In this document: piece by piece, positions 1 through 413 of the stretch
Position numbering within the stretch: the stretch's first letter is position 1
How the letters are laid out: each line of letters begins with the position of its first letter
Virus record (IMG/VR): IMGVR_UViG_2609459833_000014
Location: 1 to 4,087 of that record
Source of the DNA: a virus
Taxonomy: Duplodnaviria > Heunggongvirae > Uroviricota > Caudoviricetes
Length of the DNA: 4,087 nt
Direction: 5' to 3' (one strand)
Program-made: the position numbers and the translations under genes
The notes under the pieces: model-generated
What the model was told of the DNA's origin: nothing
Database searches by the model: none
What the model saw: only the letters and a program-made list of their open reading frames with translations

Positions 1-146
1 TAGCCCCACTGTTCGTCCATTTCCGCGCAGACGATGACGTCACTGCCCGGCTGTATGCGCGAGGTTACCGACTGCGGCCTGAGTTTTTTAAGTGACGTAA
101 AATCGTGTTGAGGCCAACGCCCATAATGCGGGCAGTTGCCCGGCAT
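1..146 (-). CDS. insB: IS1 InsB, 5' portion only (truncated by the window edge); expressed as InsAB' by -1 frameshift from insA
   Basis: Reverse complement of 146..1 translates as [48 protein letters not shown] with no stop. ATG at 146..144 (minus strand). Absent from the ORF track because it runs off the window. Confidence 0.85.
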
Positions 147-340
147 CCAACGCCATTCATGGCCATATCAATGATTTTCTGGTGCGTACCGGGTTGAGAA
201 GCAGTGTAAGTGAACTGCAGTTGCCATGTTTTACGGCAGTGAGAGCAGAGATAGCGCTGATGTCCGGCGGTGCTTTTGCCGTTACGCACCACCCCGTCAG
301 TAGCTGAACAGGAGGGACAGCTGATAGAAACAGAAGCCAC
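65..340 (-). CDS. insA: IS1 InsA (transposition inhibitor / N-terminal part of the InsAB' transposase)
   Basis: Complete 91-aa ORF in the six-frame track. Cys-rich N-terminal zinc-finger-like region (CPSC...CSHC) and helix-turn-helix region, matching IS1 InsA as I recall it. Confidence 0.93.
83..91 (-). other. IS1 programmed -1 ribosomal frameshift motif (A6C slippery run) at the insA/insB overlap
   Basis: Plus-strand gttttttaa is TTAAAAAAC on the minus strand, encoding Leu-Lys-Asn of InsA (..HLKNSG..). This is the known slippery site producing InsAB' transposase. Confidence 0.75.
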
Positions 341-372
341 TGGAGCACCTCAAAAACACCATCATACACTAA

Positions 373-395
373 ATCAGTAAGTTGGCAGCATCACC
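373..395. repeat. IS1 terminal inverted repeat (left end, IRL), outer boundary at 395
   Basis: Sequence atcagtaagttggcagcatcacc is the reverse complement of the IS1 terminus GGTGATGCTGCCAACTTACTGAT. Its partner IRR is outside the window, so the pairing cannot be verified here. Confidence 0.75.
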
Positions 396-403
396 TCCCT
401 GCC

Positions 404-410
404 GGGAGGA
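404..410 (+). promoter_or_regulatory. Shine-Dalgarno sequence for the esterase gene
   Basis: GGGAGGA ends 3-4 nt before ATG 414. It lies in the 18 bp between the IS1 end (395) and the start codon. Confidence 0.6.
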
Positions 411-413
411 ATA

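Follow-up and report, generated by a model that had tools for sequence, protein, structure and literature searches.

Insertion sequences are frequent between stx and the lysis genes of Stx2a phages (PMC10462455). Those described in the Q–S region of these phages, IS629/IS1203 of the IS3 family and ISEc8 of the IS66 family, lie between the late promoter or stx and the lysis genes, in or just upstream of nanS-p (PMC10462455), and the element described here is placed likewise. It differs from them in belonging to the IS1 family, in sitting in an stx-negative prophage and in its position, 18 bp from the ATG within the leader of nanS-p, where none of the 5,426 complete E. coli genomes has it. A further counterpart is the IS1 of a prophage in E. 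coli SCU-176 (NZ_CP054345.1; locus L026), which is of the same type, has the same orientation with respect to nanS-p and falls in the same interval between the antiterminator gene and nanS-p (Q–tRNA–nanS-p). That copy is complete (768 bp) and flanked by a 9-bp duplication, GGGTTTGCG; it differs in lying about 1.16 kb upstream of nanS-p, in another prophage (nanS-p region about 87% identical), and in interrupting another small ORF. Phages PhiR12_3 (PV340552) and PhiR5_2 (PV340546) and about 20 E. coli prophages share the gene order nanS-p–DUF1378–DUF826–S–R with the present locus but have an empty site, so that a Q-like gene and a 1.45-kb spacer containing STnc100 run into nanS-p. A literature search on the names of the related phages gave nothing useful.

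The window, that is, the whole stretch of DNA analysed (4,087 bp), is the entire contig JNRV01000156.1 (match 1–4087) of the E. coli-type draft assembly GCA_000704865.1. IS1 elements are about 768 bp long and make a direct target duplication of 9 bp, occasionally of 8–11 bp. The contig stops at its left end inside an IS1, because this is a multi-copy repeat which the assembler left unresolved, and 395 of the 768 bp and one of the IS1 junctions are therefore visible. The features of the visible half are as follows.

1–395, minus strand: left (insA-proximal) 395 bp of an IS1A-type IS1, its inner side cut by the contig end; 1 mismatch in 395 bp from a complete 768-bp IS1A copy.
1–146, minus strand: first 48 codons of the insB' frame, stopping at the contig end (gene call on JNRV01000156.1).
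65–340, minus strand: insA, 91 aa, intact (Pfam Zn_ribbon_InsA, 1.3e-21; HTH_Tnp_IS1, 4.7e-31).
83–89, minus strand: A6C motif (AAAAAAC; GTTTTTT on the plus strand) for programmed −1 frameshifting where insA ends; 'programmed frameshift' also appears in the annotation of the reference copy.
361–388, minus strand: inward-facing promoter-like site of IS1, CTGCCA-16-TATGAT, ahead of insA; the lone promoter-like site near the junction.
373–395, minus strand: left terminal inverted repeat of IS1, GGTGATGCTGCCAACTTACTGAT on the minus strand, the same as the end of the reference copy.

The reference is the SCU-176 element (L026 3628–4395), the last 395 bp of which differ from the window at position 203 only; RefSeq names this copy, and the BLAST matches, 'IS1-like element IS1A family transposase'. 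A terminal inverted repeat of ~23 bp and the succession of insA (zinc ribbon plus HTH), A6C −1 frameshift site and insB' are found as in the IS1 family, and the visible half shows no difference from IS1 of the IS1A/IS1R group of E. coli and Shigella.

The terminus of the element reads ...GTTGGCAGCATCACC, with its last base at 395. It is followed by a gap of 18 bp (396–413, TCCCTGCCGGGAGGAATA) and then by the ATG of nanS-p at 414. Two features occupy the gap.

396–404: TCCCTGCCG, 9 bp of phage DNA immediately past IS1; candidate for the right-hand copy of the 9-bp target duplication.
405–409, plus strand: GGAGG, the intact Shine-Dalgarno sequence of nanS-p, the same in IS-free alleles and conserved in more distant prophages.

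The initial annotation of this DNA had put the IS1 terminus at 395 and the esterase ATG at 414 with an intact Shine-Dalgarno sequence between them, and all its coordinates hold against the sequence and the ORF call. It had also described insA and insB as transcribed away from nanS-p, as is borne out by the minus-strand insA with its two Pfam matches, and had seen no hybrid promoter at the IS1 end. The same conclusion is reached here: TTGGCA is present at 382–387, and the hexamers 16–18 bp downstream (GGGAGG, GGAGGA and GAGGAA) are not −10-like. A consensus scan found no promoter-like site on the plus strand, either at the junction or in the whole window. On these grounds, TTGGCA having no −10 partner and the plus-strand scan being blank, we rejected the idea that the IS1 end provides a hybrid or outward promoter.

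The phage DNA to the right of the junction carries the following features.

414–2387, plus strand: nanS-p-type gene of a prophage sialate O-acetylesterase, 657 aa, with DUF1737, SASA and DUF6645, intact (Pfam; phrog_143, 4.5e-299).
2529–2723, plus strand: gene of a small DUF1378 protein.
2749–3039, plus strand: gene of a DUF826 protein, 96 aa, which carries the strain-marking SNP at 2776.
3049–3077, plus strand: strong intrinsic terminator-like hairpin (12-bp stem) and T run, located after the DUF826 gene and before the holin gene.
3116–3331, plus strand: class II holin S (Pfam Phage_holin_2_1; holin phrogs).
3336–3869, plus strand: endolysin R, a lysozyme (Pfam Phage_lysozyme; phrog_7 endolysin, 7.5e-62).
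3960–3992, plus strand: strong intrinsic terminator-like hairpin (14-bp stem) past R.
About 200 bp after R, to the contig end: spacer with the strong terminator-like hairpin (sequence and hairpin scan).

In NanS-p the Pfam domains DUF1737 (residues 3–53, 6e-17), SASA (83–274, 1.4e-9) and DUF6645 (508–618, 5.8e-27) all score above their cut-offs and give the three-part architecture of an N-terminal DUF1737, an SASA esterase and a C-terminal carbohydrate-binding-type domain. The conserved GQSN serine motif is seen at residues 85–88 (LAGQSNG), and the protein is a predicted 9-O-acetyl sialic acid esterase. Its gene has the late-region location of lambdoid phages, with holin and endolysin downstream and, upstream, the Q-like gene in IS-free relatives or stxB in an Stx2a prophage. 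The exact protein is present in 850 blocks of public assemblies in the protein index. In PhiR5_2 (L027, PV340546.1; host listed as K-12 MG1655; 99.2% identity with the window), the annotation splits nanS-p into two ORFs (3029–3250 and 3297–5003, in the region L027 3029–5003); the gene is apparently disrupted, which suggests that the phage can grow without it. The start of the DUF826 gene is disputed among gene callers, between ATG at 2749 (96 aa) and TTG at 2635 (134 aa); the TTG start overlaps the DUF1378 gene in another frame, and Pfam DUF826 is recorded for the 134-aa product only. The Rfam search of the window gave a single sub-threshold match, to the rimP leader on the minus strand at 3936–4024 (27.5 bits; gathering score, 47; E = 0.17); this match overlaps the plus-strand terminator hairpin after R and is probably due to chance.

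From position 396 to 4087 the window is 99.2–99.9% identical to about 20 complete-genome E. coli prophages and to phages PhiR12_3 and PhiR5_2, and the homology of at least 20 complete genomes and the two phage genomes to the window restarts exactly at 396. At the point of insertion the IS-free relatives read ...GCATACACTA followed directly by TCCCTGCCGGGAGGAATAATG (in longer form, ...TTGATTGCATACACTA followed by TCCCTGCCGGGAGGAATAATGGC), and also ...CACTA followed by TCCCTGCCGGGAGG; TCCCTGCCG occurs once in these empty sites. Comparison with IS-free homologous prophages had been proposed as the check on whether IS1 is an insertion here, and the empty site, with homology resuming at 396, answers it in the affirmative. 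With a 281-bp probe across the site and a required coverage of at least 80%, the empty site was detected in 421 of the 5,426 complete E. coli genomes, in 19 of them at an identity of at least 99%. The IS1-occupied junction is absent not just from all these genomes, but also from the GTDB species representatives, the JGI metagenome contigs and IMG/VR. The occupied allele is rare, strain-specific and probably recent.

The organisation that precedes nanS-p when IS1 is absent can be read from the IS-free relatives. There, the genes of the nin region lead to a 204-aa protein which matches PHROG 753 (phrog_753), 'anti-termination protein Q-like', with E = 3.3e-68 and has no Pfam match; some relatives have a Phage_antitermQ protein at the position of this gene. 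The Q-like gene is separated from nanS-p by 1.45 kb without an annotated gene, and the position of this spacer is that of stx in Stx phages. The STnc100 sRNA family is represented in it by two full copies and a degenerate one (138.7, 129.9 and 30 bits; gathering score 47), located by Rfam as follows.

L001 5109–5302: STnc100, full copy.
L001 5578–5787: STnc100, full copy.
L001 5338–5513: STnc100, weak match.

Every STnc100 copy closes with a strong intrinsic terminator, and at least three strong intrinsic terminators, with 8-bp stems, are present on the plus strand of the spacer ahead of nanS-p. Homology to the spacer between stxB and nanS-p of an Stx2a prophage covers the final ~200 bp ahead of nanS-p, in which the IS1 target site lies. 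The initial annotation had stated that this junction normally connects the Q-dependent late promoter region, and often stx, to nanS-p. Both parts are supported, the former by the Q-like gene 1.45 kb upstream of nanS-p in the IS-free relatives and the latter by these ~200 bp, which with the target site follow stxB in the Stx2a prophage.

Two other features of the spacer were observed. Downstream of the Q-like gene, L001 4833–4959 resembles a tRNA (Rfam tRNA, 26.5 bits against a gathering score of 29, over a match of 127 nt) and is not called as one by ARAGORN. Stx phages carry tRNA genes at that position, and the remnant may be a decayed copy of them. About 70–200 bp upstream of nanS-p, on the minus strand (L001 5798–5933), there is a 27-aa ORF with an AGGAGG Shine-Dalgarno sequence, followed by a strong terminator (8-bp stem, T8). 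Conservation of its DNA extends to other prophages, the nanS-p-proximal part being found also between stxB and nanS-p in the Stx2a prophage. We have rejected it as a conserved gene, the ATG and the frame being variable in other prophages; the region is more likely non-coding, and possibly encodes an antisense RNA.

The best explanation of the locus, which we advance tentatively and rate as coming close to probable, is a simple insertion of IS1 that leaves lysis largely unaffected. In a recent, strain-specific transposition, an IS1A-type IS1 would have entered the 5' leader of nanS-p in an stx-negative lambdoid prophage with the Q–nanS-p–lysis layout of Stx phages. It lies right after base −19, counted from the ATG, of the IS-free relatives, with its transposase genes facing away from nanS-p, and the ribosome-binding site, nanS-p, DUF1378, DUF826, holin and endolysin are untouched. 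The element is presumably complete, with a 9-bp duplication at its ends.

Under a simple insertion, the left junction is expected to join phage DNA (...GCATACACTATCCCTGCCG; ...CACTATCCCTGCCG; ...TTGCATACACTATCCCTGCCG) to the right end of IS1, GGTAATGACTCC. This arrangement (phage DNA, TCCCTGCCG, IS1 right inverted repeat) occurs in none of the complete E. coli genomes or GTDB representatives. Markers of the strain were also followed. With respect to the IS-free loci L001, L002, L005 and L006, the window has SNPs at 2588 and 2776, and of these the A at 2776 differs from L012 too and the T at 2588 does not. In the whole protein-position index, the DUF826 variant produced by the A at 2776 is found in three contigs, namely the window, a sister contig L014 (GCA_026685695.1) and an IS-free ENA metagenome contig, L013; none of the three extends leftwards. 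Exact-protein look-ups with the common NanS-p and DUF1378 proteins led to IS-free long contigs only. As a separate observation, the right ends of the two draft contigs differ, the window ending at 4087 and L014 at window position 3857, inside or just past the endolysin region, which suggests that the genome holds another lambdoid prophage sharing that part of the lysis cassette.

It is here that another reading has to be weighed, in which IS1 marks the boundary of a rearrangement (an adjacent deletion or inversion, or IS1–IS1 recombination), the Q gene and the late promoter no longer lying upstream and nanS-p and the lysis cassette being left as an orphaned remnant. A single junction is visible, in a 4,087-bp contig broken at both ends, and the predicted left junction is found in no collection searched; this last absence says little, however, because the right junction is missing from the same collections. 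IS1 is well known to promote adjacent deletions and to serve as a substrate for homologous recombination, and degraded lambdoid prophages are common in IS-rich genomes, but most copies of IS1 are simple insertions with duplications, such as that in SCU-176. The identity of the right-hand phage DNA to intact prophages and isolated phages (99.8–99.9%) moreover suggests that the prophage is young and the event recent. We consider a rearrangement possible, and rather unlikely on balance.

Returning to the simple insertion, its consequences depend on transcription. Given that IS1 offers no outward promoter, the expression of nanS-p, S and R needs transcription from upstream, and nanS-p and the lysis genes would still rely on the late transcript. 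At least three terminators precede nanS-p and two more lie in the lysis cassette, so native late transcription must be antiterminated. A Q-type antiterminator would let this transcription cross the native terminators, and a polymerase so modified would probably cross the 768-bp IS1 as well; late transcription may thus read through the element, assuming that a Q of this type supports read-through. RNA polymerase modified by Q is resistant to intrinsic as well as Rho-dependent terminators, and antitermination by lambda N relieves the polarity of IS elements. In Stx2a lysogens mitomycin C raises nanS-p by 1–2.4 log (PMC10462455), in agreement with a Q-modified, terminator-resistant polymerase.

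The RNA of IS1 in the direction of late transcription was examined for features that might stop such transcripts. It has one weak 5-bp hairpin only, 9–13 stops per frame and many stretches in which C exceeds G, with a C/G ratio of >1.3 in 241 of 691 78-nt windows. An untranslatable RNA that is rich in C and poor in G is compatible with Rho loading and fits the classical Rho-dependent polarity of IS1, an element classically regarded as strongly polar in both orientations. The initial annotation had noted that IS insertions are typically polar, with read-through by Q-modified polymerase as a possibility, and had suggested a remodelled or defective late region of the prophage, a suggestion that finds no support here. 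The argument from polarity is weaker than was implied, with at least three terminators in the native spacer and two in the cassette against one weak hairpin in IS1. As late transcription must already resist terminators, the polarity of a simple insertion of IS1 would probably be weak. These arguments on polarity and read-through draw on textbook knowledge, since the literature search on IS1 polarity and antitermination produced only an incidental match, to the resident IS1 of phage P1.

The opposite outcome, a simple but strongly polar insertion in which late transcripts end within IS1, with nanS-p, holin and endolysin poorly expressed and the prophage lysis-defective, would draw on this same established polarity, on the 241 of 691 C-rich windows of the untranslated RNA and on the lack of any promoter-like site downstream of IS1 that could rescue expression. 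It has to contend with a native late transcription that passes at least five strong intrinsic terminators and must therefore be antiterminated, and with the established property of antiterminated polymerase of ignoring Rho-dependent polarity. In addition, it is common for Stx2a phages to have an IS between stx and the lysis genes (PMC10462455). We regard strong polarity as unlikely. Of similarly low probability is the more general proposition that IS1 acts as a heritable lock, by which the Q-dependent late promoter, through polarity or rearrangement, is uncoupled from nanS-p and the lysis cassette, giving a grounded prophage that is unable to lyse its host and has its esterase gene intact.

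Least probable is an artefact of assembly. De Bruijn assemblers break contigs at repeat boundaries. L014 is 3,460 bp long and 100% identical to window 398–3857, so that it starts 2 bp inside the junction, and it possibly comes from the same isolate as GCA_000704865.1; to judge by the sequences, its break point supports a real IS1 there and argues against a chimeric join. That the IS1–nanS-p junction is a chimera, with no IS1 at this place in the genome, is thus very improbable: the contig does end in a multi-copy repeat and the junction is in no other public sequence searched, but a second assembly from a different pipeline breaks 2 bp away with complete identity over its length, and the join coincides exactly with the canonical terminus of IS1, a match that a random chimera would not produce.

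The components of the locus (IS1, NanS-p and the S/R lysis cassette) are all known, and for lambdoid or Stx-like prophages the presence of an IS in the Q–S region is documented (PMC10462455); what is new is this particular allele, which is absent from all of the collections searched. Taken as a simple insertion, it is an ordinary event with little weight beyond annotation, one more IS in the lambdoid region from Q to the lysis genes. On the side of method, the locus teaches that where a short contig ends in a repeat, upstream absence supports no conclusion. If IS1 does act as a lock, an early step in prophage domestication would have been caught soon after it occurred, which would still be familiar prophage decay. 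If the insertion blocks late transcription, the prophage of this strain would be lysis-defective, and this would bear on the prediction of inducibility from draft genomes, a conceptually old point. That insertion sequences in the region from Q to the lysis genes make Stx and Stx-like phages heterogeneous is already documented.
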